This document shows, piece by piece, positions 2 through 25,041 of a stretch of 64,000 nt of DNA; position 1 is the first letter of the stretch; each line of letters begins with the position of its first letter. The stretch is from Thermodesulfobacteriota bacterium (GTDB lineage: Bacteria; Desulfobacterota; Binatia; UBA9968; JAJDTQ01). Made by a program: the position numbers and the translations under genes. The stretch spans positions 2,335,467 through 2,399,466 of the forward strand of contig OZ220710.1 in NCBI GenBank assembly GCA_965116635.1, written 5' to 3'. A model generated the notes under the pieces. That model searched no databases and was not told the origin of the DNA. It was given only the letters and a program-made list of their open reading frames with translations.

Positions 2-1249
2 GTCCGGGAGGAGATCCTGGACAACGGCCTCAAGGTGCTCTTGCTGGAGAACCACCGGAGCCCCGCCGTCACCTTCCAGGTGTGGTACCGGGTGGGCTCG
101 CGCAACGAGGTGGACGGCAAGAGCGGCATCGCGCACTTCCTCGAGCACATGATGTTCAAGGGCACCGACAAGGTGGCGCCCGAGGAATACGCCCGCACCA
201 TCCGGAAGCACGGCGGCCGCTCCAACGCGTTCACCTCCTACGACACCACCGTGTACCACGCCACCATGAGCCGGGAATCCATCGGCGTGGCCATCGAGCT
301 CGAGGCCGACCGCATGGTCAACACGCGCCTTCAGGAAGTCCACTTCACGCCCGAGAAGAAGGTCGTGCAGGAGGAGCGGCGGCAGCGCACCGACGACCGC
401 CCGCGGGCGGCGCTGGGCGAGGTCACCGCCGCGGTGACCTACGCGGTGCACCCGTACCGCCGCCCCATCATCGGCTGGCCCCAGGACGTCGAGCGCATGA
501 CCCTGCAGGACCTCGAGGACTTCTACCGGACCTACTACGCGCCCAACAACGCTTTTATCGTGGTGGCCGGGGACTTCGACAGCGAGGAGATCCTGGCGCA
601 GGTCCGCGAGCATTTCGGCGCCATCCCCCGCGGGCCGGACCCCCCCGAGGTGGGACAGGCCGAGCCGCCCCAGCGGGGCGAGCGCCGCGTGCAGCTCAAG
701 AAGGAAGCCGAACTGCCCGTGGTGATCATGAACTACCACGTGCCCGAGGTGGGGCACCCGGACAGCTACGCGCTGGACGTGCTGGAGATGATCCTGTCGC
801 GCGGCCGCACGTCGCGGCTTCACCGGGATCTGGTGTACGAGAAGCGCATCGCGCGCTACGCCTACGCGGGCTATCACCGGGTTTCCATCGACCCCACCAC
901 CTTCACCCTCGGCGCCCAGGCCATGCCGGGCAAGGACATCGCCGAGGTGGAGGCGGCCATCGACGAGGTCATCGGCCAAGTGCGAGACGAGGGCGTCACC
1001 CAGGCGGAACTCGACAAGGCCAAGAACCAGGTGGCGGCGAGCTTCATCTTCGCCCAGGAGTCCAACCGGGGCCAGGCCATGCGCGTCGGCTTCTATGAGG
1101 TGACCGGCGGATGGCGCCGGATGAACGAATACCTCGGAGGCATCCAGGGGGTCACGGCCGAGGACGTCCAGCGCGTGGCGCGGGAGTACCTCGACCGCGA
1201 CCGCCGCACCGTGGGGGTCCTGGTGCCCCAAGAGAGGCAACGCTCATGA
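2..1249 (+). CDS. M16 family zinc metallopeptidase (pitrilysin/insulinase-like), 5'-partial at window edge
   Basis: Frame 2 is open from base 2. The HxxEH inverted zincin motif HFLEHMMFKGT is present. The stop overlaps the next gene start (ATGA). Confidence 0.85.
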   Translation, partial: VREEILDNGLKVLLLENHRSPAVTFQVWYRVGSRNEVDGKSGIAHFLEHMMFKGTDKVAPEEYARTIRKHGGRSNAFTSYDTTVYHATMSRESIGVAIELEADRMVNTRLQEVHFTPEKKVVQEERRQRTDDRPRAALGEVTAAVTYAVHPYRRPIIGWPQDVERMTLQDLEDFYRTYYAPNNAFIVVAGDFDSEEILAQVREHFGAIPRGPDPPEVGQAEPPQRGERRVQLKKEAELPVVIMNYHVPEVGHPDSYALDVLEMILSRGRTSRLHRDLVYEKRIARYAYAGYHRVSIDPTTFTLGAQAMPGKDIAEVEAAIDEVIGQVRDEGVTQAELDKAKNQVAASFIFAQESNRGQAMRVGFYEVTGGWRRMNEYLGGIQGVTAEDVQRVAREYLDRDRRTVGVLVPQERQRS

Positions 1250-6339: not shown

Positions 6340-7206
6340 CTATTCCAACGACCATCGAGCCCGCTCCGCCACGAAGCCAGCGAAGGGTTCGATGTCCATC
6401 CTGACGCTGGCCGCTTCGAGCGCCGCGAGATAACCGTCCCTGTCCTCCACGCGGATCACGGTCCACGGGTAGCCGCCCGATGCCAGCATGACGTTCATGA
6501 GAAAGCGCGCCACGCGCCCGTTGCCGTCCGGATAGGGGTGAATGTAACCGAACAGCCAGTGACCGAGAACGGCGCGCGCTGACGGCTCGGTTTCGTTTTC
6601 CAGCAACTCGAACAAGGCAGGCATGGCATCACGCACCGTCTCCCAGCGTGGCGGTACGTGACTGGACCCGCGTAGAAACACGGCGCTGCCGCGGTAGCCG
6701 GCCAGAGCCGACGCCGCGATGACACCGGCCGCCACGAAGGGCTGGAACATCTCAAGGTACCAGTTCCGATGCGCCGCGCGGACAAGGCTGCCCGAGTCGC
6801 CGCCGGCGACAACTTTGCCGACCGTCTCCCTGACAAGCTGGAACGCCTGCCAGTAACCCCGCGCAGCCAGGGCGTCGCGGCTCTGCCGATCGGCCTCGTG
6901 GCCTTCCGGGCTCCAGTTGCCGAGGCGAACCCGTTCGACCAGTTCAGCGGTTACACGATAGCCTTCGATCGACAACGAGTGGTATGCATCGCTCCGGTAG
7001 ATTTCATCGACTGCTCGCAGATAGGCGTTCCGGTCTCGCGGCAAGCCGGGGGGTTCCGGGAATGCCGCGATCACCGGCCGCCGGGAGGCTTCCCACATGG
7101 CTTGCAGGCACCCTACGATGGGCGCCGCGGCACGGCTTATTACTCCGAACACCTGTTGCGGCACGAACGGATCGTTCTCACGCACATCGTAGCCGGCGGC
7201 CTTCAT
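6340..7206 (-). CDS. Fic family protein (AMPylase-like), class II with intrinsic inhibitory motif
   Basis: Fic core motif HPYPDGNGRVAR matches HxFx(D/E)GNGRxxR. An N-terminal SLSIEG matches the (S/T)xxxE(G/N) autoinhibitory helix motif. Confidence 0.8.
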   Translation of the reverse strand: MKAAGYDVRENDPFVPQQVFGVISRAAAPIVGCLQAMWEASRRPVIAAFPEPPGLPRDRNAYLRAVDEIYRSDAYHSLSIEGYRVTAELVERVRLGNWSPEGHEADRQSRDALAARGYWQAFQLVRETVGKVVAGGDSGSLVRAAHRNWYLEMFQPFVAAGVIAASALAGYRGSAVFLRGSSHVPPRWETVRDAMPALFELLENETEPSARAVLGHWLFGYIHPYPDGNGRVARFLMNVMLASGGYPWTVIRVEDRDGYLAALEAASVRMDIEPFAGFVAERARWSLE

Positions 7207-7335: not shown

Positions 7336-8100
7336 TCAGCCGGCGATCTTGAGGACCAGGGCTTTCGGCCCGGCGCCGTGCCGGGCATAGGAACCGAGGG
7401 GCACGTTGTGGACCTGGAAGCCTGCCTCCTCCAGGTGGGCGGCGGTTTCCGGGCAACCTTCCGGCAGGACCGCGTTCCGGCCCGTGACCAGCGCGTTGCA
7501 TCCCAGGCGCGTCGCATCATCCGCATCGACGGGATGGATCCGAGGCACGTGGTCGTGGATCGCCTTGCGCGCGCTCGGATCGAAGGCGTCCGGATGGAAC
7601 AGCGCGCTGTCATCGCCCAGCGGGCACAGGCAAGTGTCGAGAGGCCGGTCCCAGGCGTCGGACAGGCGAAGGGAGTGGATCGCACCACCGAGGACCTTGC
7701 CGACGGCTTCGTGGGCGGCCAGGTCGTCATCGGACCGATACCCCGCGAACATCGCCCCGCCCACGACCACCAGGTCCCGCCCGCCTTCGAAGCAACAGCC
7801 TTCCTGGAGTTTCGGCGTGGCGTAGCCCCGCACCAGGAAGAAGTTCTCCCACGCTTCGGCTTCGGGCCGCCTCGAGTCTTCCCTAAACCGGCTTGCGATG
7901 AAGGAGTCCTGCCAGACGAATCCGCCGCCGGCGGCCAGCACCAGCCTGGGCATATCGGGCCTGGGCTCCAGCAGATCCACCTGCACATCCAGCTCCTCGC
8001 GCAGAAGCCGGTAGAGGCCGCGCCACTCGGCCATGACGGCGGACGGATCCTCGCCGGGCGCGGGCTCATAGTTGAGCGGCGGGCACATCAGGACCTTCAT
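7336..8100 (-). CDS. amidinotransferase / DDAH-like (pentein fold) superfamily protein
   Basis: FEGGRDLVVVGGAMFAGYRSDDDLAAHEAVGKVLGG resembles the EGGDvl...G.S.RTN block of the amidinotransferase/DDAH family. A C-terminal catalytic Cys is not evident. Confidence 0.45.
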   Translation of the reverse strand: MKVLMCPPLNYEPAPGEDPSAVMAEWRGLYRLLREELDVQVDLLEPRPDMPRLVLAAGGGFVWQDSFIASRFREDSRRPEAEAWENFFLVRGYATPKLQEGCCFEGGRDLVVVGGAMFAGYRSDDDLAAHEAVGKVLGGAIHSLRLSDAWDRPLDTCLCPLGDDSALFHPDAFDPSARKAIHDHVPRIHPVDADDATRLGCNALVTGRNAVLPEGCPETAAHLEEAGFQVHNVPLGSYARHGAGPKALVLKIAG

Positions 8101-9302: not shown

Positions 9303-10586
9303 CTAGTCATCCGCCCCCCTGCTCGGGGCCACGATCCAGATGCACGCCAACGATAGCGCACACAGGACAATGCCGATCCAGCCCGAGCTGGCATAGCTGC
9401 CGGAAAGGTCGTGGAGGTAGCCCGCCAGCCAAGGGCCGACGCCCGCGCCCATTCCTATGCTGAAAGCCAGGAAGCCGATGATGGAGCCGAAATGCTTGCC
9501 ATGAAAGATATCGGCGGCGATGGTCGGATAGAGCCCCTGGCGCGACCCGAAACCCACGGCGAACAGCGGCGGGTAGAGGGACACCACGAGTATCTCCGAC
9601 ATTCCGTCGAGGTTGAGGAGGACCACGATGCCCCCCACCAAGGCCAGGCTGCCGATGGTGTAGGCCCGCTCGCTGCCGATCCGGTCCGAGAGCGTCCCCA
9701 TGCCGATCATGCTGAAGGTGGTGAAGAACCCGGTGAGGCCCAAGACCCAGGCGCCGAACTCCCGCGAGAGTCCGGCGTCCACCATGGCGGCCACCTGGTG
9801 CACCAGCACCATGTGCACGGGGATGGCGCCAAACACGAACCCCCCGGCCAGCGCCCAGAACCGGTAGTTGCGGAGCGCCTGGGCGAGAGTCATGCCGCCT
9901 TCGAGCGCCCGGCGCGGCCCTCCGCTTTCCGCCGCGGTGGTAACGCCGAAATCCGGCAGCAGTCCCATGTCCTGCGGCCGGCGCCGCTGGAGCAGCAGGT
10001 TGAGCGGCACCACCGCCGCCAGCATCACGCCGGCCAGCACCAGATATGCGTTGCGCCAGCCCAACGCGACGATCAGCCACTCCGTGGCCGGCACCACCAG
10101 AAAGATCCCGACGCCGATGCCCGAAGCCGCGAGGCCCATGGCCATGCCGCGCTTGCGTACGAACCAGTTGGTGATGACCGTGGCCTGCGACGTCATGGGC
10201 AGCGCGGCGAAACCGAGTCCGACCAGAAGCCCCATGCCCAGGTAGTAGTGCCAAACGGTCTGCGTCATGGCGCTGACGGCGAATCCCGCCGCCATGAGAG
10301 CCGCGCCCGCCGGGAACACGACCCTGGGGCCGAGCCGGTCCAGCATGTGCCCCCACGCCGGCGCGGAAACGGTCCACGCCACCGAGCCCAGGGCCAGCGC
10401 GCCGGCGGCCAACCCGCGGCTCCACTGAAACTCCTCGATAACCGCCACGAAAAAGAGCGCGAACGCCGCGCGGCACCCGAAGGCGGCGGCCACGGTCATG
10501 AACGAGATGCCCAGCACCACCCACGGGTAGGTGCGGTTGAGCCGTGCGGTGCGAGCGGAAACGGAGTCGGCGGCCAGGGTTTCCAA
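9303..10586 (-). CDS. MFS transporter
   Basis: 427 aa with about 12 predicted hydrophobic helices in a typical MFS arrangement. Confidence 0.85.
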   Translation of the reverse strand: METLAADSVSARTARLNRTYPWVVLGISFMTVAAAFGCRAAFALFFVAVIEEFQWSRGLAAGALALGSVAWTVSAPAWGHMLDRLGPRVVFPAGAALMAAGFAVSAMTQTVWHYYLGMGLLVGLGFAALPMTSQATVITNWFVRKRGMAMGLAASGIGVGIFLVVPATEWLIVALGWRNAYLVLAGVMLAAVVPLNLLLQRRRPQDMGLLPDFGVTTAAESGGPRRALEGGMTLAQALRNYRFWALAGGFVFGAIPVHMVLVHQVAAMVDAGLSREFGAWVLGLTGFFTTFSMIGMGTLSDRIGSERAYTIGSLALVGGIVVLLNLDGMSEILVVSLYPPLFAVGFGSRQGLYPTIAADIFHGKHFGSIIGFLAFSIGMGAGVGPWLAGYLHDLSGSYASSGWIGIVLCALSLACIWIVAPSRGADD

Positions 10587-14441: not shown

Positions 14442-14527
14442 GGGCGGCTTTGTTTCCAGGGGCCGTTTGGGTATAGAACTCGGTGGGCGCGCCGTCCACC
14501 GAAGCCCACTCCGTGGAGAATGGATCG

Positions 14528-15613
14528 ATGAAGGTCAGCCTCTTTACCGAAGTGCAGTGCCCCTCGGGAAGCGTTCCCGCCGAACTGCTGGTGCAGTTTC
14601 TCGAACAGGCCGAGCTGGCCGACAACCTGGGCTACGACGGCTACTGGATAGCCGAGATCCACTTCACCCCCAGCTTCTCGCTCCTGTCCGCCCCTTACGT
14701 GGTGCTGGGAGCCGCCTCCCAGCGCACCCGGAACCTGCGCCTGGGGGTTGCGGTCAACACCCTTCCCGTCCACCACCCCATGCAACTCGCCGAGCAGGCC
14801 GCCACCCTGGACGTCCTGAGCAACGGCAGGATGTGCTTCGCCGCCGGCGGCGGGCATCCCCACACCCGCGCCTACGAGTGCTTCGGCGTGGAACACGAGC
14901 ACGTCCGGGACATCATGGAGGAAAGCATCGAGGTCATCCGGCTGGCGTGGACCGAGGAGGCCGTGGACTACCAGGGCCGTTTCTTCCGGATCCCCAGCAT
15001 CGTCGCCAACCCCAAGCCGGTGCAGCAGCCCCATCCGCCCCTCTACACCGCCGCGAGTTCCCTCGACGGAGTGAACTTCGCCGCCCGCATGGGACTGAAT
15101 CTCTTCATCCCGGTGCACGTGCGGACCGCGGAAGAGCTGCGCGAATTCGCCGCCACCTACTGGAAGGTGCTGGCGGACCACGGCCACGACCCGGAAGACC
15201 ACGAGCTCGGCCTGCTCCTGCCCATGCACGTGGGCGGCACCCCGGACGAGGCCCGGGCGCGATCCGAGGCCGGAGTCATGAGCTACTACGACGTGATCCG
15301 GGAGACCCGCGGAAGCTACGCCCAATGGCTCACGGCCCAGGGACGGCCGCTGCCCGAACGGCTACGCAAGAACGCGGCCGCGGACAGCCTGACCTTCGAT
15401 CGCGTGTGCAGCGAGTTCGCCGCCATCGGCACGGCGGATCAAGTGGTGGACCGGGTCGCCGGTCTGGCCCGCGACACCGGCGCCGGGCACGTGCTGGCGT
15501 GGATGAATATCGGCAGCGTCTCCCACCCCCACATCAAGGAGTCCATGCAGCGTTTCGCCGAGGACGCCCTGGCCGCGGTGCGGGAGATACAGCCGTTCCG
15601 TTCAGGCCGTTAA
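14528..15613 (+). CDS. LLM class (luciferase-like) flavin/F420-dependent oxidoreductase
   Basis: Luciferase-like monooxygenase signature. Preferred start is ATG 14528 (MKVSLF), preceded by GGAGA; the track ORF starts at 14483. Confidence 0.85.
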   Translation: MKVSLFTEVQCPSGSVPAELLVQFLEQAELADNLGYDGYWIAEIHFTPSFSLLSAPYVVLGAASQRTRNLRLGVAVNTLPVHHPMQLAEQAATLDVLSNGRMCFAAGGGHPHTRAYECFGVEHEHVRDIMEESIEVIRLAWTEEAVDYQGRFFRIPSIVANPKPVQQPHPPLYTAASSLDGVNFAARMGLNLFIPVHVRTAEELREFAATYWKVLADHGHDPEDHELGLLLPMHVGGTPDEARARSEAGVMSYYDVIRETRGSYAQWLTAQGRPLPERLRKNAAADSLTFDRVCSEFAAIGTADQVVDRVAGLARDTGAGHVLAWMNIGSVSHPHIKESMQRFAEDALAAVREIQPFRSGR

Positions 15614-15631: not shown

Positions 15632-15750
15632 CGTCCTTCGACTTCGCTTCGCTACGCTCAGGACGAACGGAGAGAGACTTTCACAACCGTTCGTCCTGAG
15701 CCCTTCGACAGGCTCAGGACAGGCTTCGCGAAACGAAGTCGAAGGACGCT
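15632..15750. repeat. Repeat family A palindromic element (with an internal insertion in the right arm)
   Basis: gcgtccttcgacttcgcttcgctacgctcaggacgaacgg ... ccgttcgtcctgag ... cgaagtcgaaggacgc. Confidence 0.85.
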
Positions 15751-15752
15751 CC

Positions 15753-15980
15753 CTAGTGTCCGTCGTCCTGCTTGAGAGGCCGGAGGCCGCGGCTCATACG
15801 GCCCAAAACCACCACCAGGAAGCCCGCGCTCACGGAAACGGTGGCGATCAACAACGCGATTCCCGCCTGGGTGGCGTGAAAAATGCTTTGCGTGGTCAGG
15901 GCCGCCGACGCCGCGTAGGCGCCGTATCCGGCGGCCACGGCGCCCCAGCCGAACAGTATCGCTGCCGCGAAAACGACCAT
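15753..15980 (-). CDS. hypothetical small membrane protein
   Basis: About 75 aa with two hydrophobic segments. The internal start MVVFAAAILFGW was chosen. Coding status is weakly supported. Confidence 0.3.
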   Translation of the reverse strand: MVVFAAAILFGWGAVAAGYGAYAASAALTTQSIFHATQAGIALLIATVSVSAGFLVVVLGRMSRGLRPLKQDDGH

Positions 15981-16087
15981 GAACGGGAACCTCACACAAG
16001 GCCGCGGGCAAGTCAACGAGCGATTCTGGACCCGGCCACGCAAAGTTGCTACGGTCCTGTAACGTGCACGAAAGGCCCAAGTCAGCC

Positions 16088-18331
16088 ATGAATCAGGACA
16101 GCCAGTCACCCGAAACCACCCACGACATCGATCCGATCCGCTACGAAATGTTCCTCCACCGGCTCTGGGCCATCGGCGAGGAAGGCCGGATGACGCTGCA
16201 GCGCGTTACCGCCTCTCCCATCGTCGCCCAGGGGGGCGAGTGCATGAGCTCGTTCTACGACGCCGGCGGCACCATGGTGCTGGCCTGCTCCGGACATCTC
16301 CGTTTCGCCCACGCCACTTCCGACGCCATCAAGCATCTCATCGACACCTTTGGAGAGTCGCCAGGGTTCTTCGACGGCGACCAGCTCTTCTTCAACGACC
16401 CCTACGTGGCCGGCGCTCACACCTACGACATGATGGTCATCAAGCCGATCTTCCACGACGGCGGTCTCATCGGCTGGGTGGCCACCAGCACCCACACGGC
16501 GGACACCGGCGGCAACCTGCGGGGCGCGGCCACCGAGATCTTCCACGAGGGCATCCGGATCATGGGCCTCAAGGTGGTGGAGCGCGGCATCTTCCGCGAG
16601 GACGTGTTCAAATCCCTCACCGAGCAGTGCCGGGACCCGCAATACGTGGGGCTGGACCTCAAGGCCATGATCGCCGGAAACAACGTTTGCGGACGGCGCT
16701 ACCTCGGCCTGGTGGACAAGTTCGGCCTGGAATTCGTCCAGGCCGCGGGCGCCCGGATCATTGCCGACACCGAGGCGGCGGCGCGGGCCAAGCTCAGGTC
16801 CCTGCCGGACGGCACCTGGACCGGACGCACCTACCTGACGTTTCTGGACACCAAGACCCGCAAGGCCGCTCCGCTCCGGATTATGAGCACGCTCACGAAG
16901 AAGGGGGATCAGTTGACGCTGGACACCACCGGCACCAGCCCCCAGACCAGCAGCGACGTCAACTCGACCTTTCCCAGCACCCGGGCGCTCATCGGCGTCG
17001 CCATCACCAACACGCTCTTCTGGGACGTCCCCTGGAGCGACGGCAAGTGGGCTCCCATCGATCTCGTGGTGCCGGAGGGATCGGTGCTGAACTGCCGGTT
17101 CCCGGCGGCCTGCGCCGCCGCCCCGGTGGTGGGCGGCATCCTGGTGGCGGCAACGTGCGAGGCCGCCGGCAAGATGCTTTACGCGGCCGGCCGGCACCAG
17201 GACGTCCCGGCCTCGTGGTACGCCACCTGGTACGAGGGCGGCCCGGGCTACATCCCCGCCGGTCACAACCGCGAGGGTGTCCGCACCGCCATGGGCATCT
17301 ACGACATCCACGGCAGCGGCCTCGGCGCCACGCCGCTGCACGACGGCGTCAACACCGGCGGCCACATGAACATCCCGTCGGGAGGGATCAGCGACGTCGA
17401 ACGCACGGAGATGCAGTATCCGCTGCTCTATTTCTCCCGCAACCACAACACCGACGGCTCCGGCTTCGGCAAGTACCGCGGCGGGGTCGGCACCTACCGG
17501 ATCTTCATGGTGTACGGCTCCCAGGATTTCTCCACCGACTTCAAGCCCTACGGCTGGATACCGCAGGGGGCCTATGGACTGTTCGGCGGACATCCCACCG
17601 GCCCCGGCGGGATCCGCGCCATCTTCCTCACCGAAAGCGACATCGTGGAGCGTCTGGCGGCGGGCAACTACCCGGCCCGGCTTGACCAGATCGAGGCCGA
17701 CGACTGGGGCAAGGCGCTGATTCCGGAGGGCGCCCCCGGCCGTGTGTCGCTGCCCGAGTTCACGCTCCTGAGCGACTACGTCCAGAGCGGCGGCGGCTAT
17801 GGCGATCCGCTGGACCGTAACCCGGCGGCGGTGGCCCGGGACGTCCGGGTCGGCGTGTCCACCGAAGCATCGGCGCGGCGGTTCTACGGCGTCGTGCTGC
17901 GCCGGGAGGACGGCGAGGTGGACGAACCGGCGACCGAGGAACAGCGGAACGCCATACGGACGGCACGGCTCGAGCAGGCGGCGCCGGTAACGCCGGGCGC
18001 GGCTCCGGACGGGAAGACCGTGGAAGGGCAGCCGCTGACGCGGATTCACGAGACGCTGGAAGTCGTGCGGAACGGCGCCGGGAAGCGGATCCGCTGCATG
18101 CGCTGCGGTTTTGACTTCGGCGGCACCGACGGGAACTACAAGAAACGCTGCCTCAAGCGCGTCGTCGAGCTGGACGAGATCGGCGGCCAGCATCCGGTAT
18201 CGGGCGACGGCTATCTGGGAAGGTACCACGAATACATCTGTCCCGGCTGCGCCACGCTGCTCCAGGTGGACGTCTACTGTCCGCAACTGGGCGGCGAGGA
18301 AGACCTCTGGGACATCCACATCGAGGCTTGA
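16088..18331 (+). CDS. hydantoinase B / 5-oxoprolinase / acetone-carboxylase-alpha family protein (HyuB-like) with C-terminal Cys4 zinc-ribbon-like extension
   Basis: The HyuB N-terminal signature is present (DPIRYEMFLHRLWAIGEEGRMTLQRVTASPIV...MSSFYDAGGTM). The last ~80 aa carry CMRCG...CPGC. Confidence 0.8.
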   Translation: MNQDSQSPETTHDIDPIRYEMFLHRLWAIGEEGRMTLQRVTASPIVAQGGECMSSFYDAGGTMVLACSGHLRFAHATSDAIKHLIDTFGESPGFFDGDQLFFNDPYVAGAHTYDMMVIKPIFHDGGLIGWVATSTHTADTGGNLRGAATEIFHEGIRIMGLKVVERGIFREDVFKSLTEQCRDPQYVGLDLKAMIAGNNVCGRRYLGLVDKFGLEFVQAAGARIIADTEAAARAKLRSLPDGTWTGRTYLTFLDTKTRKAAPLRIMSTLTKKGDQLTLDTTGTSPQTSSDVNSTFPSTRALIGVAITNTLFWDVPWSDGKWAPIDLVVPEGSVLNCRFPAACAAAPVVGGILVAATCEAAGKMLYAAGRHQDVPASWYATWYEGGPGYIPAGHNREGVRTAMGIYDIHGSGLGATPLHDGVNTGGHMNIPSGGISDVERTEMQYPLLYFSRNHNTDGSGFGKYRGGVGTYRIFMVYGSQDFSTDFKPYGWIPQGAYGLFGGHPTGPGGIRAIFLTESDIVERLAAGNYPARLDQIEADDWGKALIPEGAPGRVSLPEFTLLSDYVQSGGGYGDPLDRNPAAVARDVRVGVSTEASARRFYGVVLRREDGEVDEPATEEQRNAIRTARLEQAAPVTPGAAPDGKTVEGQPLTRIHETLEVVRNGAGKRIRCMRCGFDFGGTDGNYKKRCLKRVVELDEIGGQHPVSGDGYLGRYHEYICPGCATLLQVDVYCPQLGGEEDLWDIHIEA

Positions 18332-18335
18332 CACC

Positions 18336-19511
18336 ATGGCGGGAACACTCGAAGGCATCAAGATTCTGGAGCTGTCCAGCTTCGTGACGGGGCCGTTCGC
18401 CTCCATGCTCATGGCGGACCTGGGCGCGGAGGTCATCAAGGTCGAAGACCGGGAAAAGGGCGATCCGTTCCGCGGTTGGGGCGAGCGGCTCTACTCGGCC
18501 ACCTTTTGCAGCCTGAACCGGAACAAGAAGAGCATCACGCTGGACATCCGCAGCGAGGAGGGCCGGGACATCTGCCGCCGGCTGGCGGCCGAGTCCGACG
18601 TGCTCATCGAGAACCACCGCCCGGGCGTCATGGCCCGCCGAGGCCTGGATTACGACACGATCCGCGCGCTGAACCCCCGGATCGTCTACTGCTCTATTTC
18701 CGGCTTCGGCCAGGACGGACCCTATCGTGACCGGCCCGGGTTCGATACCGTCGGCCAGGGGATGAGCGGGCTGCTGAGCCTGCTCACGGATCCCGACCAG
18801 CCCAAGGGCATGGGCATCTCCCTGTCCGACCACCTCACCGGCGTCTACGCCTGCTACGGCGTGCTGGCGGCGCTGGTGAACCGGATGATGACCGGCGAGG
18901 GACAGATCATCGAAACGTCCCTGTTGCGCGCGTCGGTATCCTTTACCGCGGAAAACTGCGCCCGCTACTTCGAAACCGGCGTGGTGCCCAGCCGGGCCGA
19001 CCGCACCCACACCGCCGGGGTCTTTGCATTCGTGGACCGGGACGGCAAACCCTTCGTCGTCCACTTGTCCTCACCCGACAAGTTCTGGCTCGGCCTCGTG
19101 GAAGTGGTGGGCAAACCCGAGTGGGCCGAAGACCCGCGATTCGTGGACAAGAAAGGCCGCACCGACCACCACGACTTGCTGGAAGAGGAGCTCCAGGCCA
19201 TCTTCGGCCAGGACTGCCGCGACGTGTGGCTGCGCAAACTCGAGGAGCACGACGTCCCCTCCACCCCGTTGAACAACCTCGAGGACATGTTCAACGATCC
19301 GCAGGTGCGGCAGTACGGCTTCCCCATCGAGGTGGAGCACCCCGAGATGGGCAAGGTGAAGCTGGTGGGCAGCGGCGTCAACATGAGCCGGACGCCGCCG
19401 GAGACTCCGACCCCCCCGCCCATGCTCGGCGAGAACACCGATGAAATCCTGCAGGGCCTGGGTTACGGCGTAGACGCCATCGAGGGGCTGCGCGCGCGAC
19501 AGGTCATCTAG
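18336..19511 (+). CDS. CoA-transferase family III (CaiB/BaiF-like)
   Basis: N-terminus MAGTLEGIKILELSSFVTGPFASMLMADLGAEVIKVE, typical of family III CoA transferases. Starts 5 bp after the HyuB stop. Confidence 0.85.
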   Translation: MAGTLEGIKILELSSFVTGPFASMLMADLGAEVIKVEDREKGDPFRGWGERLYSATFCSLNRNKKSITLDIRSEEGRDICRRLAAESDVLIENHRPGVMARRGLDYDTIRALNPRIVYCSISGFGQDGPYRDRPGFDTVGQGMSGLLSLLTDPDQPKGMGISLSDHLTGVYACYGVLAALVNRMMTGEGQIIETSLLRASVSFTAENCARYFETGVVPSRADRTHTAGVFAFVDRDGKPFVVHLSSPDKFWLGLVEVVGKPEWAEDPRFVDKKGRTDHHDLLEEELQAIFGQDCRDVWLRKLEEHDVPSTPLNNLEDMFNDPQVRQYGFPIEVEHPEMGKVKLVGSGVNMSRTPPETPTPPPMLGENTDEILQGLGYGVDAIEGLRARQVI

Positions 19512-19720
19512 TGTCAATCGTCCCGTGACGCCCATCCAGGGGCCGTCGGAGGCTCTTTCGGCGTGTGGAGATGGGTCAAAATTTCATGGCGTTTTTTCGT
19601 TGCTTGGAGCCGCCCAAGTCTGATAGGTACTTAACTCTTTTATAACTTTGGCGTGATCGCGGCATGTGCCACGACGGACCACGGTCCACGCGGCTACGGC
19701 GGGTAACGCCCGGAACACGG

Positions 19721-22255
19721 ATGACCGGTATGATGTACCACACCAAAACCCTTTGCCTTCTGGTGGCACTGTTCATGTCCCTCGCCTCATGCGTCTCCAT
19801 CGAGGAACACGAGGAACTGAACCGCGAGAAACAACGCGTAGAGGCGGACAATACCACTCTGACGCAGGACCTTCAGCGCCGAGGACGCGAGGTTACCACC
19901 CTCGAAGCGAGAGTCGCGGAACTGACGCAGGACGTGACCCGGTCCGAGGGCAGGCTCGAACAGAGGGGACAGGAACTCGCGGACGCGCAACGACAGATCA
20001 ACGAGCTGACGGCATCCCTGGCCCAGGTCCGGCAGGAGTTGAACACCGCCGTCACCGAACGAAGCAACACCGTGAACCGCTACCAGCGGAGAGTGGCGGA
20101 TTTGACGGCCGAACGGGACAACACCCTCAAGACCGTCGACGACTATGCCGCGCAACTCGACGAAAAAGCGGCGGCAGTACAGGATCTGGACGCCAGAGTT
20201 CGGGAATTGGCCCGTCTCAGGGACTCCCTGGTGCAGCAGAACGCCCTTCTGGCGACCGCCAAGGCCGATCTCGAAGAAAACTTCGCCGCGCTTGTACGCA
20301 ACCGGGATGAATTGACCGCGCAAGTGGAAGGGCTTGGGACCCAGGTGGCCCAGCAGGATCGGGTCATCAGCGGCATGAGCGCCCAAACCGATCGGCTGAA
20401 CGCGGTGAAGCAGTCGCTGGAAGCGGAAGTCACCAACCAGAAGGCCAGCATGGCACAGTTGCGGCAGCAAGTGTCGGAAGTGACACGCTCACTGGAACAG
20501 ACCCGCGCCGACAAGGACGACGCCCTGGCCAACCTCGCCGCAAAGGAAGAGGAAGCCGGCGAAAAACTCGCCTCCCTGACCGCCGCCCATGAGCAGGCCG
20601 TCGAACAACACCGGCGGCAACTGGCCCTGACCACCCGCTCGCTGAACCAGACCCGCGCCGACAAGGACGAGGCCCTGGCCAACCTCGCCGCAAAGGAAAA
20701 AGAAGCCGCCGAGAAACTGGCGTCCCTTACGTCCCTTGCCGCCGCCCATGAACAGGCCGTCCAAAAGCTCCGGCAACAACTGGCTCAAACCACTCGCTCA
20801 CTGGAGCAGACCCGCGCCGACAAGGACGACGCCCTGGCCAACCTCGCCGCAAAGGAAAAAGAAGCCGGTGAGAAACTCGCCGCCCTTGCCGCCGATCATG
20901 AACAGGCCGTCACAGAGCTCCGGCAGCAACTCGGTCAGACCACTCGCGCCCTGAACCAGACCCGCGCCGATGAGGAAAAGGCCTTGGCCGACCTCGCCGC
21001 CAGGGAACGGGCGACCACCGCAAGCCTGATTTCTCTCACCACCTCCCACGAACAGGCCGTCAGCCAGTTGCGGCAACAATTGGCACAGGCCACGGCTTCC
21101 CTCGAACAAGTGCAGACGAAAAAGGACCAGGAAATCGCCGCCCTGACCGCCGATTCACAACGCCTTGCGAAACAGTTGGCGACGTTGAGGGCCGGCCATG
21201 AAGAAGCCACCGGACGACTGCGGCAGCAACTGGCCGAAGCGACACGGTCTCTCGAACGGACGCAGGCCGGGAAGGACCAGGCGCTCGCGGCCTTGACGGT
21301 GGTCCAAGGAGACCTCACGACACAATTGGGGCAACTGAAGTCCGCCGTCGAACAGGCTGTCGGAGAGTCGCAGAGACAACAGGCTCAAGCCGCCGTGGCG
21401 CAACTTGAACAACGCCTGGCGGAGGTGAATCGTTCGCTGGGACAGACCCGCGCCGAGAAGGAACAAGCCTTGGCCGACCTGGCTGCCAGGGAAAAGGAAG
21501 CGACCGAGAAGCTCACCTCGCTCACCACCGCCCACGAACAGGCCGCCGCGCAACTTCAGGGGCAACTGGATGAGACCAACCGCTCCCTCGAGCAGACCCG
21601 GGGCGAGAAAGCCAAAGCGGTAGCCGATGTCGCCGCCAGGGAAAAGGAAGCGGCCGAAAAACTCGCCGCCCTCACCGCCGCCCACGAACAGGCCGCCGCG
21701 CAGCTTCAGCGGCAACTGGACGAAACCAATCGCTCGCTCGAACAGACCCGCAGCGAAAAAGAACAGGCGATGGCCGATCTCACCGCCAAGGAAAAGGAAG
21801 CGGCAGACAAGATCGCCGCCCTCACCGCCGCCCACCAGCAGGCGGCCGCGCAGCTTCAACAGCAACTGGAAGATACCAACCGCTCGCTCGAACAGACCCG
21901 CACAGAGAAGCAGCAGGCCGTGACCGATCTGGCCGTCAAGGAAAAGGAGGCGGCAGACAAGATCGCTGCCCTCACCGCCACCCACAATCAGGCCGCCGCG
22001 CAGCTACGGCAGCAACTGGCGGAAACCAACCGCTCGCTCGAACAGACCCGCACAGAGAAGCAGGAAGCCGTTACCGCCCTGGGCGTCGACAAGCAGAAAC
22101 TCGCGCTGCAGATGACCAAGGCGGAGGCCGAGCGCGACGCCCTCAAGCAACAGATCGAGGGAAAACTCGTGCTGGAAACCTACTGGCAGTGGATCTTCGG
22201 CGCGGTCGTGGGCCTCGGAGCCATTGGTTGGGGTTCCAGGTGGTTCCGGTCGTAG
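19721..22255 (+). CDS. lipoprotein with ~10 tandem 50-aa coiled-coil repeats and C-terminal transmembrane anchor
   Basis: Signal peptide plus lipobox (LFMSLASC). The unit RSLEQTRADKDDALANLAAKEKEAGEKLASLTAAHEQAVEQHRRQLAQTT is repeated about 10 times. The C-terminus WQWIFGAVVGLGAIGWG is hydrophobic. Confidence 0.7.
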   Translation: MTGMMYHTKTLCLLVALFMSLASCVSIEEHEELNREKQRVEADNTTLTQDLQRRGREVTTLEARVAELTQDVTRSEGRLEQRGQELADAQRQINELTASLAQVRQELNTAVTERSNTVNRYQRRVADLTAERDNTLKTVDDYAAQLDEKAAAVQDLDARVRELARLRDSLVQQNALLATAKADLEENFAALVRNRDELTAQVEGLGTQVAQQDRVISGMSAQTDRLNAVKQSLEAEVTNQKASMAQLRQQVSEVTRSLEQTRADKDDALANLAAKEEEAGEKLASLTAAHEQAVEQHRRQLALTTRSLNQTRADKDEALANLAAKEKEAAEKLASLTSLAAAHEQAVQKLRQQLAQTTRSLEQTRADKDDALANLAAKEKEAGEKLAALAADHEQAVTELRQQLGQTTRALNQTRADEEKALADLAARERATTASLISLTTSHEQAVSQLRQQLAQATASLEQVQTKKDQEIAALTADSQRLAKQLATLRAGHEEATGRLRQQLAEATRSLERTQAGKDQALAALTVVQGDLTTQLGQLKSAVEQAVGESQRQQAQAAVAQLEQRLAEVNRSLGQTRAEKEQALADLAAREKEATEKLTSLTTAHEQAAAQLQGQLDETNRSLEQTRGEKAKAVADVAAREKEAAEKLAALTAAHEQAAAQLQRQLDETNRSLEQTRSEKEQAMADLTAKEKEAADKIAALTAAHQQAAAQLQQQLEDTNRSLEQTRTEKQQAVTDLAVKEKEAADKIAALTATHNQAAAQLRQQLAETNRSLEQTRTEKQEAVTALGVDKQKLALQMTKAEAERDALKQQIEGKLVLETYWQWIFGAVVGLGAIGWGSRWFRS
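20480..22080 (+). repeat. ~150-bp in-frame tandem DNA repeats (about 10-11 copies) inside the coiled-coil lipoprotein gene
   Basis: Repeated cgctc(g/a)ctggaacagacccgcgccgacaaggacgacgccctggccaacctcgccgcaaaggaa... units. Confidence 0.8.
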
Positions 22256-22266
22256 CGGGTGGACTC

Positions 22267-22992
22267 TCAGCCCGTCATGTCGGGCCAGTCCCGCAGCAGC
22301 TTCCCGTAACCGGCAATGCTGCATGAAAACCCGACCCTGGAGAGCATGAACCAGAGCATGGCGGGATTGCTGGCCACCACCGGCCGCGAGAGGTTCTGCT
22401 CGATCCGGTCCAACACCTTCAGCGGGTCCAGCACCGCCCCCTGGAAATAGACCGCGTCCACGTCCGGGTTCGCCGCAAGCGCTTTTTCGGTGAGCGCGTA
22501 CACGTCCTCGGGCTCCACCGTCATGGCGTCGCGGTAGTCGTCGAAGGTATCCGCGGGTGAGATCGCTTCGATGCCGCAGTCGGTGAGATAGTCGCGGATC
22601 AGCTTGTTCATGGACTCGACGAACGGGGTCAGCAGCAGCACCCTGGGAGTCGAAAGAGACTTCAGCGCCTCCACGCAGGATTCCAGCGCCGTCGTCACCG
22701 GCACGTCCACCGCATCCTTCAACCGCCCCAGCAGTCCCGGATTGAGCACCTCCACCGGCGCCCCGCTGACGATGACACCCTTCCAGCCACGCTCCCGCGC
22801 CAGCCGGGCCGAGGTCTCCACCACCATGTCGTCGGTGCCCCTGAGGCTCTCCAGGGACCCGCGGACGATTCCCAGCCCCTCGAAGTCCATCTCGACTTCC
22901 TCGGGGATGAAGGCCCGGAACGGCTCGAAGTGGGCGCTTGAGCTCGAGATGGGTGTGACGAAACCAATTTTGAGTTTTGCCGGCTCTGCCAT
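22267..22992 (-). CDS. Asp/Glu/hydantoin racemase superfamily protein (maleate isomerase / arylmalonate decarboxylase-like)
   Basis: 241 aa with a two-lobed racemase-like pattern (GFVTP...SSSAHFEP; LLLTPFVESMN). Confidence 0.55.
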   Translation of the reverse strand: MAEPAKLKIGFVTPISSSSAHFEPFRAFIPEEVEMDFEGLGIVRGSLESLRGTDDMVVETSARLARERGWKGVIVSGAPVEVLNPGLLGRLKDAVDVPVTTALESCVEALKSLSTPRVLLLTPFVESMNKLIRDYLTDCGIEAISPADTFDDYRDAMTVEPEDVYALTEKALAANPDVDAVYFQGAVLDPLKVLDRIEQNLSRPVVASNPAMLWFMLSRVGFSCSIAGYGKLLRDWPDMTG

Positions 22993-23020
22993 GGGTTCCT
23001 CCTTGTCCGGAAACCGATCT

Positions 23021-24220
23021 TCAGAACGAACGCGCGGCGATCCAACTGCCGCCGATGAAAGTGCCCAGGGTGCTCCCCAGGTTCGAGAACACGACGACGA
23101 GCAGGATACGCGAGACGGGGTTGCGCCAAAGCCCCTTGGGGAACGCGGTCACCACCTCGCCCATGGCCTCCAGGTCGGCCACGGTGGGCTTCTTGACCCA
23201 GGCCTGGACCAGTCCCGAGACCCAGCCGGCGGCGATGGCGGGGTTGAGGCTCGTGATGGGGGCGGCCAGAAACGCGGCCAGCACCGTCACCGGGTGGCCC
23301 AGGGCCAGCGCCGCGCCCGCCGCCGCCAGAACGCCGTTCACCAGCACCCAGATGGAGACGGACTCCAGGGAGTGGGCGGCGCCGGCGCGGTAGAAGCCGT
23401 AGGCGATGATCGCCACGATCAGGGAAGGCACCAGCCACTTGATGCTCCTGGACCACAGCGAACGCTCGGGGACGGTCTCGAGAGGAGCCAGCGAATGGTC
23501 CGTGTGAATCGCCCGGGCGATGCCCGGCACATGCCCCGAGCCCACCACCGCCACCACCCTCTCGCCCTCGGCTTCCCGGATCTTCTGCGCCAGGTAGACG
23601 TCCCTCTCGTCGATGATCGAGTGCTTGATGGCGGGAAAGGCGTTGGCGAACTCCACCAGGACGTCCCCCAACCGTTCCTGCCGCTTGAGATCGTCCACCG
23701 CCTGCTTGTCGATCTCCGGCTCCACCACCACGCTGCTGAGAAGCACGAAGAGCAGCTTCAGCTTGTTCCAGTAGTTGAGGCCGCGCCAGGTCCTTTTCAA
23801 TGTCACCTGGACGTCGCGGTCCACCAGCACAAGCTCCACGCCGCGCTCATGCGCCAGCTTGACGCCCTCCAGCATATCGGCGCCGGGCCGGACGCCGAGC
23901 CGGTCGCCGATGCGCTTGTAGAACGCCGACATGATCAGTTGGCTCAACAGGAGGGCGGCCTTGCCCTCCTTGATGACCTTGAAGACGTCCATCTTGCGCC
24001 AGGCGTCAGGCCGGGTGAAGGCCTCGTACCGGGCCTGGCACAACTCCACGCAGATGGCGTCGGGCGCCACCGTCTCCACGGTCCTGCGCACGTCCTCGAC
24101 GCTCTCCGAAGACACGTGCGCGGTGCCGACGAGATAGATCTCCCGGCCCCGGTCATGAAGGCGCCGGGTGTTGGCCGGGAGTCCGGTAGGCGCCGGGCCT
24201 TGTGCTTCGTCCGTGTCCAC
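23021..24220 (-). CDS. TraB/GumN family protein with C-terminal membrane domain
   Basis: EIYLVGTAHVSSESVEDV and AICVELCQARY are TraB-family motifs. C-terminal hydrophobic helices. The start is uncertain: the track ORF reaches 24442, but the first ~75 aa look non-coding (R/G-rich), so GTG near 24220 is proposed. Confidence 0.65.
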   Translation of the reverse strand: MDTDEAQGPAPTGLPANTRRLHDRGREIYLVGTAHVSSESVEDVRRTVETVAPDAICVELCQARYEAFTRPDAWRKMDVFKVIKEGKAALLLSQLIMSAFYKRIGDRLGVRPGADMLEGVKLAHERGVELVLVDRDVQVTLKRTWRGLNYWNKLKLLFVLLSSVVVEPEIDKQAVDDLKRQERLGDVLVEFANAFPAIKHSIIDERDVYLAQKIREAEGERVVAVVGSGHVPGIARAIHTDHSLAPLETVPERSLWSRSIKWLVPSLIVAIIAYGFYRAGAAHSLESVSIWVLVNGVLAAAGAALALGHPVTVLAAFLAAPITSLNPAIAAGWVSGLVQAWVKKPTVADLEAMGEVVTAFPKGLWRNPVSRILLVVVFSNLGSTLGTFIGGSWIAARSF

Positions 24221-24225
24221 GCGGG

Positions 24226-25041
24226 TCAAACCTGCGCCACCGGCCCGTCGTAGTTCCGCAGCCAGCCGATGAACTGGACGATCTGGTCGACCATGTAGTC
24301 GTGGTATGCCTTGCCCTTCTCGGGCGACGCCTTGATGGAAGGGCTGAAGGAGCCCGTGGGGACGATGCGGCGTTGCTCCGTGCTGGTCCAGGGAATGTCG
24401 ATGACCTCGTGCGGCGCGGAGAAGAGGTCGCCGTGGGACCACGGCGAGAAATTCTCGTCAAAGTCCACCTGCGAGGTGGTGAGCTTCTCCTGCTTGATCA
24501 GGTGGGGGTACTTGTACCAGCACTCCGAGATCTCCAGCTCGCCGCTGTGATGCTCCTTGGCTTCCTTGATCTCGTTGGCGATCTTCTTGGCGATCTTCAC
24601 CGGATCGATGACCGCGAAGAAGACCTCGGGCATCTCGTACTCGCGCAGGTTCTTGGTGGCCGCCAGCAGGCCGGGGAGGTTGGCGCCCTTGTGTCCGTTG
24701 ATGATGAGGATCTTCCGGAAGCCGTGCTTTTGCAGGCTGCGGCTCATGTCCTGGATCACCGCCATCAAGGTCTCGGTGCGGAGCGAGATGGTTCCCGGGA
24801 AACCCAGGTGATGCGGCGAGTCGCCGAACCACAACGGCGGCGTGCACAGCGTTCCGGTAGCCCGGGCCACGTCTTCCGCCAGGGCGATGGCGATGAGGCA
24901 GTCCAGCCCCAGAGGGCCGGCGGGGCCATGCTCTTCGGTGCTGCCCACCGGACAGATGATGATGTCGGAGTCCTCGAGGTATGCCCCGACATCCTCCCAA
25001 GTCAGTTCCTGAAGCCATACCGAGCCAAGCTGCGCCGCCAT
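24226..25041 (-). CDS. creatininase (creatinine amidohydrolase) family protein
   Basis: CPVGSTEEHGPAGPLGLD is the creatininase metal-binding block. ATG at 25041 is preceded by AGGAGG. Confidence 0.8.
   Translation of the reverse strand: MAAQLGSVWLQELTWEDVGAYLEDSDIIICPVGSTEEHGPAGPLGLDCLIAIALAEDVARATGTLCTPPLWFGDSPHHLGFPGTISLRTETLMAVIQDMSRSLQKHGFRKILIINGHKGANLPGLLAATKNLREYEMPEVFFAVIDPVKIAKKIANEIKEAKEHHSGELEISECWYKYPHLIKQEKLTTSQVDFDENFSPWSHGDLFSAPHEVIDIPWTSTEQRRIVPTGSFSPSIKASPEKGKAYHDYMVDQIVQFIGWLRNYDGPVAQV

Follow-up and report, generated by a model that had tools for sequence, protein, structure and literature searches.

To our knowledge, the ways in which membranes are tied together and envelope geometry is set in diderm bacteria outside the model Proteobacteria are largely unknown, and the envelope of the phylum from which the present sequence originates has never been studied. 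We also know of no description of anchoring by an N-terminal lipid and a C-terminal transmembrane (TM) segment other than in phage lysis proteins, the unimolecular spanins (u-spanins). One of these, T1 gp11, carries a lipobox and a C-terminal TM domain on one chain and links the inner membrane (IM) with the outer membrane (OM) (PMC6139136). A coiled-coil protein encoded in the stretch of 64,000 nucleotides analysed here (the window) shares with u-spanins an N-terminal lipoprotein signal with a lipobox Cys, as judged by pattern. However, u-spanins function in lysis, their genes lie in lysis cassettes and their periplasmic domain is predicted to consist mostly of beta sheet, whereas the Binatia family that includes the window protein is all-helical, 321 to 1733 aa long, chromosomal and syntenic, and has no sequence similarity to them.

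Other likenesses concern the coiled coil itself. Lpp is a protein of 58 aa attached to peptidoglycan via its C-terminal Lys. It forms a trimer cross-linked to peptidoglycan, and its lengthening by 14 to 21 residues made the periplasm 3 to 4 nm wider and broke Rcs signalling (PMC5736177). Both in Lpp and, as predicted, in the window protein, the acylated Cys is followed almost at once by an Ala-rich periplasmic coiled coil whose length bears, or may bear, on envelope geometry. The length of Lpp is functionally constrained, whereas that of the Binatia protein is hypervariable and its C-terminus is hydrophobic with a basic tail, SRWFRS; the Lpp family model was absent from the Pfam and NCBIfam matches of the window protein. 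SMC, Rad50 and MukB, which gave the best sub-threshold profile and fold matches, likewise have very long coiled coils folding back at a hinge, with halves matched in length. However, these are ATPases of the cytoplasm that possess head and hinge domains, and only their coiled-coil segments aligned with the window protein, scoring 51.8 bits (cut-off 567) and 47.3 bits (cut-off 729); the former match (TIGR02168) reflects coiled-coil composition only. Streptococcal M proteins and the size-variable lipoproteins of mycoplasmas are surface proteins of single-membrane or wall-less bacteria, with an LPXTG or lipid anchor only. Like the Binatia family, they begin with a signal peptide, carry a rod or repeat region in which the number of in-frame tandem repeats varies, and have near the C-terminus a motif that precedes a hydrophobic stretch and a charged tail. 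No homology to them was detected. Finally, Scy and FilP of Streptomyces reportedly contain a coiled-coil repeat of 51 residues, described by Walshaw and co-workers in 2010. This non-heptad super-repeat of about 50 residues, or 14 helical turns, is similar to ours, but both proteins are cytoplasmic, lack anchors and show no sequence similarity to the Binatia protein.

Gene, orthologues and genomic setting

The reading frame of the coding sequence (Table 1) was uninterrupted on the + strand through to position 22255. An alternative in-frame ATG at 19721, sharing the same stop end, would yield a product of 844 aa, and the N-termini of orthologues read either MMY... or MT(G/M/V)MMY.... An intact orthologous ORF was found in syntenic position at 17 other loci. 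An independent JGI contig (L016) could be aligned to the window gap-free across 9,256 bp, with 98.7% identity, and encoded the same 841 aa protein, with a number of units equal to that of the window. The repeat array is therefore not a collapsed assembly, an artefact for which the original prediction had asked a check, and the window ORF is a real gene. It is under purifying selection, judging from dN/dS ratios, which were about 0.2 in comparisons with orthologues, likewise about 0.2 for the N-domain, and 0.15 to 0.42 between units. The source bacterium is an uncultured, probably sponge-associated Candidatus Binatia; periplasmic solute-binding proteins (DctP) encoded in the window imply that its cell has a periplasm. 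No tRNA or Rfam family was found within the window, a promoter scan retrieved nothing, and terminator-like sites occurred at background level only and on the wrong strand.

Table 1. Features of the coiled-coil lipoprotein gene, in positions of the window
Feature	Position	Strand	Basis or remark
Coding sequence, coiled-coil lipoprotein	19730..22255	+	841 aa plus stop; ORF and translation
Lipoprotein signal peptide MMYHTKTLCLLVALFMSLAS, terminating in lipobox L-A-S-C	19730..19792	+	Read from sequence; Cys codon 19790-19792
N-domain of 232 residues, canonical coiled coil of heptads with V or L in the core	19793..20488	+	Periodicity 3.51
Repeat block A, units R1-R4 (50, 53, 50, 50 aa)	20489..21097	+	
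Divergent central units R5 (50 aa) and R6 (62 aa)	21098..21433	+	
Repeat block B, units R7-R10 (4 x 50 aa)	21434..22033	+	
Truncated terminal unit, then conserved juxtamembrane linker ...ERDALKQQIEGKLVLET	22034..22180	+	K33, L34, E37 invariant (alignment A3)
Gly-/Trp-rich hydrophobic segment YWQWIFGAVVGLGAIGWG and basic tail SRWFRS, putative membrane anchor	22181..22252	+	Orthologue conservation

Fourteen full-length syntenic orthologues were compared, all of them from Candidatus Binatia-type MAGs or metagenome contigs, with some 20 kb around each available for comparison of the neighbourhood. They measured 321 to 1733 aa and contained 0 to 27 units, in agreement with the variability of repeat number that had been predicted. 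Family members thus differed in length five-fold between close relatives. The span from the Cys to the hydrophobic segment ranged from 274 to 1685 residues among the compared genomes, which in helical form would be about 41 to 250 nm, and genomes differing in this span had flanking enzymes that were 77 to 99% identical. The neighbours, encoding hydantoinase B, a CoA-transferase III, an Amdase-family protein, TraB/GumN, a creatininase and a cyclase, kept their synteny at all loci, covering more than 12 genomes; these catabolic functions give no hint as to that of the lipoprotein.

Searches of Pfam, NCBIfam and PHROG gave no family match, generic coiled-coil matches remaining far below cut-offs. 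A match to CSTF_C (26.1 bits against a cut-off of 24.3) involved only 23 residues of one repeat and was regarded as compositional. No sequence relative was present in the PDB and Foldseek returned no match at E<=0.001. Exact-sequence look-ups, performed for four alternative starts and for the neighbouring gene, retrieved no record. A word-indexed search of full-length proteins gave 8,000 word-sharing candidates, none of which scored; low-complexity words had probably saturated this search. A conserved gene can be almost invisible in protein databases, in this case because short-read assemblies shatter its repeats. These proteins make up a previously undescribed family, so far seen in Binatia only; we tentatively propose, at somewhat less than an even chance, that they are structural proteins of the envelope.

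Repeat arms, hinge and coiled coil

The family has a fixed modular order: lipidated Cys, heptad N-domain of 233 residues, arm A, proline hinge, arm B and anchor. About ten tandem repeats of about 50 aa had been predicted for the window protein, and its array indeed consisted of 10 full units (aa 254-768 in the 841-aa numbering) and one truncated unit (aa 769-797); eight of the full units were exactly 50 aa long, one had 53 aa and one 62 aa. However, the claim that these repeats are near-identical and recently expanded does not hold for this window. Pairwise identity among the 11 units was 45-89% for DNA and 18-84% for protein, and Tandem Repeats Finder recovered two sub-arrays only, with 82-83% matches. 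Synonymous divergence (dS) between units amounted to 0.37-0.95, which together with the DNA identities indicates that the array is old, and the window units resembled those of other species as much as each other. Recent expansion was seen only in other lineages (L005, L010, L012 and L014); in L010 and L012, both arms have recently and independently grown, with about five near-identical units each.

The Cys lay 233 residues away from the first repeat in the window protein, and this spacing was exactly 233 aa in 11 of the 12 repeat-bearing orthologues. The sole exception, L012, displayed a 182-aa insertion composed of 14-aa repeats, in which the heptad register was kept. Hydrophobic positions recurred every 3.51 residues in the N-domain, where the power was 187 and its median 5, and every 3.57 residues, that is 50/14, in the repeats, with a power of 30 to 500 times the median at these periods; a hydrophobic period of about 3.5 residues was thus sustained over long helices, as expected from a canonical coiled coil. 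AlphaFold2 was run on single-sequence monomers, giving models of low pTM (0.26 and 0.33) that are biased to fold-back because the partner chain is absent. It predicted for the window protein a nearly unbroken helix over residues 25-794, with low confidence (pLDDT 61). For P0024, an orthologue of 321 aa made up of the N-domain, the terminal unit and the anchor and nothing else, a single helix of about 38 nm was predicted from residue 25 to residue 281, much of it at pLDDT >90; the N-domain of the window protein would measure about 35 nm as a helix. The alpha-helical coiled coil of the original prediction is thereby supported, both by the two periods and by the modelled helix. An amphipathic surface helix of the apolipoprotein type (11/3 periodicity) was considered and rejected, the observed period being 3.57 and not 3.67. 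The Ala-rich helices carry small residues on several of their faces, a composition that would permit bundling.

A hinge unit containing the proline motif Q(D/S/G/A)P(G/A/E)D, sometimes in variant form, was found in 10 repeat-bearing orthologues, i.e. in all but the window protein and its near-identical twin, and was located centrally, between two repeat arrays. Alignment to L012 showed that unit R6 of the window protein is a fusion following a deletion of about 84 aa, by which the proline hinge unit was removed; the AlphaFold2 helix of the window protein is broken at aa 543-545, in this central R5/R6 region. Lengths before and after the hinge were correlated (Spearman 0.93, n=12, phylogeny uncorrected). 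Arm length changed by whole 50-residue units and the arms stayed roughly equal, 10 of 12 pairs differing by at most about 1.4 units; those of the window protein, about 290 and 274 residues, were still balanced after loss of the hinge unit. The arms were clearly unbalanced in L005 (about 3 units) and L014 (about 8.5 units), which count against fold-back. Taken together, the hinge and the length-matched arms suggest that the repeat region is folded back on itself and does not form a single long rod. Several antiparallel registers of arm A against arm B, 7 residues apart, all satisfied the core pattern. A hairpin of the whole protein, placing both anchors on one membrane, was rejected: the N-terminal side of the hinge was always longer, by about the length of the N-domain or more.

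Lipobox and C-terminal module

By pattern, the N-terminus, MMYHTKTLCLLVALFMSLAS-C, can be divided into an n-region with basic residues, an h-region free of charges and the lipobox L-A-S-C. Every orthologue examined had kept the Cys and a [LV][AG]SC box, which upholds the lipobox signal peptide predicted initially. The residue at +2 is Val, not Asp, and the coiled coil begins about 4 residues past the Cys, without a long disordered tether.

No other part of the protein is as well conserved as the C-terminal module. In addition to the linker residues listed in Table 1, Y39, W40, W42, I43, F44, L50, A52, G54, W55 and F60 were invariant across orthologues (alignment A3). An uncharged stretch of 18 residues followed by a basic tail was kept in the orthologues, every one of which had a basic residue after the hydrophobic segment. 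Of the TM helix predicted at this end, the conserved hydrophobic segment with its basic tail could be retained, but YWQWIFGAVVGLGAIGWG is only moderately hydrophobic (Kyte-Doolittle 19-residue mean 1.24, against 2.0 for the signal peptide) and AlphaFold2 did not build it as a helix in either run. A putative N-out, C-in topology can be assigned to this segment. Export as a coiled coil of the lipoprotein type, with a hydrophobic stretch at the C-terminus as its putative second anchor, is supported; the original prediction of anchoring at both ends is upheld to this extent, but not as regards the straight spanning rod that it had placed between the anchors.

Possible arrangements in the envelope

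Our preferred reading, which we hold tentatively and with somewhat less than even confidence, is that of a periplasmic protein anchored at both ends, in which the constant strut could cross the periplasm and the variable arms would fold back. After Sec export, the C-terminal segment would be retained in the IM with its basic tail in the cytoplasm, and the acylated N-terminus, with Val at +2, would be directed to the OM via the Lol pathway. This follows the +2 sorting rule of E. coli; the rules of Binatia may differ, in which case the lipid anchor could stay in the IM. The resulting two-membrane topology would be that of a phage u-spanin. The constant N-domain would be the part crossing, or measuring, the periplasm; a strut of 35-38 nm somewhat exceeds the periplasm of model bacteria. 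Arms A and B may pair antiparallel at the hinge, like those of SMC or Rad50, either within a chain or between two antiparallel chains. Once folded, they would form a side arm of 20-75 nm lying roughly parallel to the membranes and, owing to this orientation, a change in repeat number would leave the anchor-to-anchor distance unaltered. The likely role of such a protein would be mechanical or architectural, in envelope tethering or scaffolding. The absence of the proline hinge from the window protein and the modest hydrophobicity of its C-terminal segment tell against this reading.

Another possible, though rather unlikely, arrangement has both anchors in the IM, a parallel or antiparallel dimer forming an in-plane strut or membrane skeleton on the periplasmic face, whose total length would be free. 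The apparently unconstrained length (41-250 nm), the bundling-compatible Ala-rich helices and a coiled coil starting so close to the Cys are consistent with it, and balanced arms suit an antiparallel dimer equally well. However, Asp, the IM retention signal of E. coli, is absent at +2, although that rule may not transfer to Binatia, and the invariant N-domain of 233 aa is left unexplained while all else varies. The opposite extreme, a fully extended rod that sets the width of the periplasm in the manner of a ruler or of an Lpp of great length, was the model of the original prediction; dual anchoring and the unbroken coiled coil speak for it. It is contradicted by lengths of about 118 nm in the window protein when extended and of 41-250 nm across close relatives (274-1685 residues), real rulers tolerating a few nm only (PMC5736177). 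The conserved hinge and the matched arms argue for folding as well, and we regard this model as very improbable.

The C-terminal module could also be a tripartite sorting signal of the PEP-CTERM/exosortase or LPXTG/sortase type, the protein being cleaved and displayed as a fibril of variable length, similar to M proteins. The motif K-L-x-x-E-x-Y-W-x-W-I-F, invariant just before the hydrophobic stretch, exceeds the need of a plain anchor; the stretch itself is short, Gly-rich and moderately hydrophobic, a basic tail is found in every orthologue, and fast evolution with variation of repeat number is reminiscent of surface proteins. However, no sorting-signal model of NCBIfam or Pfam (e.g. TIGR02595) matched the C-terminal peptides at E<=10, and the Pro of a PEP-type 'EP' is not conserved, the window protein having ET at this place, and L015 and L017 ER. 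Additionally, a profile of the module searched against 5.8 billion proteins retrieved only 8 fragments, all of the same family, with no other substrate or protein family, and the conserved neighbourhood contains no sortase-like gene, which makes this explanation improbable. A domesticated or prophage-borne u-spanin or membrane-fusion protein would have the same signal architecture, and hinged coiled coils recall the i-spanin Rz. This origin appears extremely improbable, given catabolic neighbours syntenic across more than 12 genomes with neither a holin nor an endolysin gene adjoining, no relative among 2.9 million viral contigs, and the predominantly beta-sheet periplasmic domain described for the prototype u-spanin. 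No spanin family matched in PHROGs, where only weak matches were obtained (E >= 0.006 for the window protein and E >= 0.00018 for P0024), which concerned tail tape-measure families or families without a known function.

Returning to the preferred reading of a crossing strut with folded arms, a more specific version can be formulated, which we consider doubtful: a cell-encoded envelope element of u-spanin topology, with the 233-residue strut held by a lipid in the OM and a glycine-zipper helix in the IM, and with an SMC-like fold-back arm whose length is tuned by coordinated gain and loss of 50-residue units on both of its strands. If true, this element would represent a novel type of tether between IM and OM, or of scaffold in the periplasm, and a family bridging the envelope would be a host-encoded counterpart of phage lysis proteins. 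The occurrence of 0 to 27 units around an invariant strut in close relatives would then constitute a natural experiment, by which the relation between protein length and envelope architecture would become directly testable.

Layout of the window protein and its family

The product of the window gene is a real and selected protein of the exported type. Its family combines conserved anchoring signals at either end with a coiled-coil body, a constant N-terminal domain (N-domain), a hinge and co-varying arms. It is encoded by a single unbroken ORF with two possible in-frame starts. The 841-aa form contains A 18%, L 12%, Q 12%, E 10.5% and zero proline. Hydrophobic periodicity was very strong in both the N-domain (3.51 residues; canonical heptads whose core positions hold V and L) and the repeats (3.57 residues, i.e. 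50 residues per 14 turns). A V/L core of this kind is typical of parallel coiled-coil dimers. In the repeat core, Leu-Leu layers alternate with polar or Ala layers, and residues R6, E20 and H34 of the unit fall at 'a' positions. The His at unit position 34 (e.g. AAHEQA) was kept in 74% of 135 units across species and is, like unit residues R6 and E20 at a 14-residue spacing, a predicted core 'a' position. Such conserved, buried polar or ionisable residues might confer metal or pH sensitivity, or specify the register.

AlphaFold2 (single sequence, low confidence) predicted long helices at residues 25-209, 220-542 and 546-794. The single C-terminal TM helix of the original prediction is consistent with a conserved hydrophobic segment; however, this segment is only moderately hydrophobic (19-residue Kyte-Doolittle mean of 1.24, versus 2.0 for the signal peptide) and contained no helix in the AlphaFold2 models. 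The assignment as a TM helix is therefore plausible rather than firm.

Coordinates of features in the window, the window protein and related contigs
Feature	Location	Strand	Description
Window gene	19721-22255	+	ATG at 19721 (844 aa) or 19730 (841 aa); stop at 22255
N-terminus	residues 1-21		MMYHTKTLCLLVALFMSLAS then C; basic n-region, uncharged h-region, lipobox L-A-S-C
N-domain	residues 22-253		without repeats
Repeat array	residues 254-768		ten units in tandem, exactly 50 aa long in eight cases, 53 aa and 62 aa in the other two
Eleventh unit	residues 769-797		shortened
C-terminus			...EGKLVLET-YWQWIFGAVVGLGAIGWG-SRWFRS
Unit His34	20489-22033		conserved His
GC3 segment	19664-22255		GC3 0.75
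Upstream intergenic region	19512-19720		210 bp
TraB/PrgY/GumN-family gene	23021-24220	-	two genes downstream
Luciferase-like monooxygenase gene	14483-15613
Hydantoinase B gene	16046-18331
Fic/DOC-domain gene	6343-7206	-	amid catabolic genes
ORF beside Fic/DOC gene	7339-8100	-	no Pfam match
N-domain expansion, locus L012	aa ~45-270		upstream of locus position 10001
Insertion, contig L018	L018 747-1727		extra ~1.18 kb, at window ~15660

Searches against Pfam, NCBIfam and PHROGs gave only generic coiled-coil matches far under cut-offs (e.g. SMC, 51.8 bits versus 567); the PDB held no sequence relative and fold comparison no significant match. Exhaustive phmmer searching of 1.84 billion representative proteins returned 22 matches only, the better of which were short metagenomic fragments, several beginning out of frame. 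A profile of the C-terminal module recovered eight fragments only from 5.8 billion proteins, all of this same family, and no relative was found among 2.9 million viral contigs. The window gene defines an undescribed, taxonomically narrow family, which repeats and frameshifts render nearly invisible to protein-level searches. In public protein collections it is present almost only as fragments of 47-150 aa (P0005, P0009, P0010, P0012, P0017, P0025-P0030), several starting in the wrong frame and some lying on long contigs (one of 106 aa is from a contig of 1.7 Mb).

With the N-domain, which lacks repeats, as query, a full-length 321-aa orthologue (P0024) and one fragment were identified; a pattern scan covering a single genome from each species yielded 11 loci, and a metagenome scan three more. 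Record titles of the 11 loci were Candidatus Binatia (nine), 'Deltaproteobacteria bacterium RHO3_bin_65' and 'uncultured Syntrophobacterales', and 9 of the 11 lay on chromosome-level or megabase-scale records. Binatia MAGs from PacBio HiFi sponge metagenomes are described in the Wellcome sponge genome notes; the pattern-scan loci probably derive from sponge HiFi projects and the window would likewise be sponge-associated. All orthologues were intact ORFs with a lipobox and the module EGKLV(L/V)E(P/T/R)YW(Q/K)WIF..GLGALGW..(R/K). Identity in the N-domain was only 55-82% between relatives at species level, against 97-98% for L016 and L018, which are contigs from the same species; dN/dS of the window gene versus orthologues was ~0.2. 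At every locus reaching far enough, a CoA-transferase III gene lay on one side of the gene and a convergent Amdase-TraB/GumN-creatininase-cyclase block on the other, with neighbouring enzymes 77-100% identical to those of the window.

Age of the array and length variation

Largely right overall, the original prediction erred in considering the repeats near-identical and recently expanded. Pairwise identity among the 11 units was 45-89% for DNA (best pair R2/R3, the second and third full units) and 18-84% for protein, and Tandem Repeats Finder detected two sub-arrays only, with 82-83% matches. Values of dS between units were 0.37-0.95, with dN/dS of 0.15-0.42, and no adjacent pair reached 95% identity. 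Mean best unit identity was 0.67 inside the window protein versus 0.75 to units of other proteins; each window unit resembles units of other species as much as its neighbours. Low unit identity, dS, dN/dS and this cross-species likeness together indicate an old array under purifying selection. An assembly artefact was ruled out by L016, an independent JGI metagenome contig that encodes the same 841-aa protein and aligns collinearly and gap-free to window 15660-24914, with 98.7% identity.

The predicted variability of repeat number was borne out, since orthologues carried 0 to 27 near-full 50-aa units. Their lengths were 321, 321, 379, 561, 622, 767, 809, 841, 841, 884, 891, 941, 1072, 1372, 1407 and 1733 aa (the two 841-aa entries being the window and its twin L016). 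The span from Cys to the hydrophobic segment ranged from 274 to 1685 residues, corresponding as helix to ~41-250 nm (0.1485 nm per residue), and to ~118 nm in the window protein. At loci L005, L010, L012 and L014, 4 to 10 adjacent unit pairs per gene were at least 95% identical in DNA, and expansion is therefore ongoing in some lineages. Two pairs of contigs (L001/L013 versus L002/L003), all short-read assemblies with flanks 99.8-99.9% identical, differed in the gene by exactly one 174-bp (58-aa) unit (321 versus 379 aa). The difference points to copy-number polymorphism within a population, although collapse of short reads over an identical junction of 43 bp may instead account for it. In L012, a separate 14-residue unit, SALTQDLEQRGQQV, was amplified inside the N-domain; the 182 extra aa represent exactly 26 heptads and keep the heptad register. 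This is a second, independent tandem expansion, in an otherwise invariant region.

Shared modular plan and possible topology

Comparison of all units revealed one fixed arrangement, which runs from Cys through the N-domain to block A, continues with two 'ALTADQRDLT'-type units, a hinge unit of 46 aa with the motif Q-(D/S/G/A)-P-(G/A/E)-D, a post-hinge unit and block B, and closes with a truncated unit before the anchor. Between Cys and the first unit, 11 of the 12 repeat-bearing orthologues had exactly 233 residues, L012 being the exception. In the window protein and in L016, a deletion of ~84 residues has removed the hinge and left the central 62-aa unit as a fusion; AlphaFold2 still breaks the helix of the window protein at the deletion site. 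Lengths before and after the hinge co-varied (e.g. 175/170, 290/274, 321/340, 425/370, 475/470), with a Spearman coefficient of 0.93 and a permutation p of 0.0008 on the median absolute arm difference (n=12 for both statistics, which ignore phylogeny). Ten of the 12 arm pairs differed by at most ~1.4 units; in the unbalanced exceptions, L005 (+3 units) and L014 (+8.5 units), block A has been amplified very recently. Since the units of blocks A and B differ in type and unique units stand between them, the two blocks must expand by separate events; about five recently amplified units were found in each block of L010 and L012.

Antiparallel A:B pairing best accounts for the matched arms on either side of a proline hinge. 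The paired arms would form either a fold-back arm like that of SMC or a dimer of antiparallel chains, the length of which could change with anchor spacing unchanged. The modular plan of the family, whose function is inferred, suggests a constant strut and an expandable fold-back arm. The original view of the structure was partly retained: the dual anchoring signals stand (conserved lipobox and C-terminal module), but the single long periplasm-spanning ruler does not. In Lpp, 14-21 added residues are enough to make the periplasm 3-4 nm wider, and Rcs signalling is lost (PMC5736177); because extended length varies six-fold among close relatives of the window protein, a fully extended ruler is not credible against such a tolerance of a few nm. 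The natural candidates for a membrane-to-membrane element would be the constant 233-residue N-domain (~35 nm) and, in the minimal orthologue P0024, one predicted 257-residue helix (~38 nm).

The positive-inside rule would keep the C-terminal segment in the inner membrane and place its basic tail on the cytoplasmic side, and under the E. coli rule the Val at +2 of the acylated N-terminus would direct that end to the outer membrane. A single chain tied to both membranes is feasible, as phage unimolecular spanins demonstrate (PMC6139136), and their topology of N-terminal lipid and C-terminal membrane segment may be shared by the window-protein family. A phage spanin itself was ruled out by context, size, predicted secondary structure and lack of similarity. 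E. coli sorting rules may not hold in Binatia, and an in-plane scaffold on the periplasmic face, with both anchors in the inner membrane, is a minority possibility of perhaps one chance in a few. Clearly less probable is that the C-terminal module serves as a cleavable sorting signal of a new type. Such a signal is suggested by the invariant K-L-x-x-E-x-Y-W-x-W-I-F motif and by the Gly-rich, short hydrophobic stretch with its basic tail, but the isolated peptide matched no sorting-signal model even at E<=10, its Pro is not conserved (P/T/R), no other protein among those profiled (5.8 billion) has the module in common and no sortase-like gene lies nearby. Anchoring in two membranes remains the preferred reading.

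Genomic neighbourhood

Across the wider window, genes for catabolic enzymes and for TRAP and MFS transporters are present; no phage or envelope-biogenesis genes were found in it. A Fic/DOC-domain gene and an adjacent ORF are also present (table). The TraB/PrgY/GumN-family protein has a multi-pass C-terminal membrane region and kept its synteny in all loci. In enterococci, proteins of this family act on peptides that originate in the signal sequences of lipoproteins; a functional link with the window lipoprotein would be pure speculation. GC3 of the window gene was below that of flanking genes (0.84-0.96), and the upstream intergenic region was clearly AT-richer, a simple scan of it revealing no sigma-70-type promoter. 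Contig L018, 98.7% identical to the window, carries an insertion between the luciferase-like monooxygenase and hydantoinase B genes, which is missing from the window; contig L016 starts at the same point. The insertion encodes, on the opposite strand, a 326-aa protein resembling by eye an IS110-type transposase.
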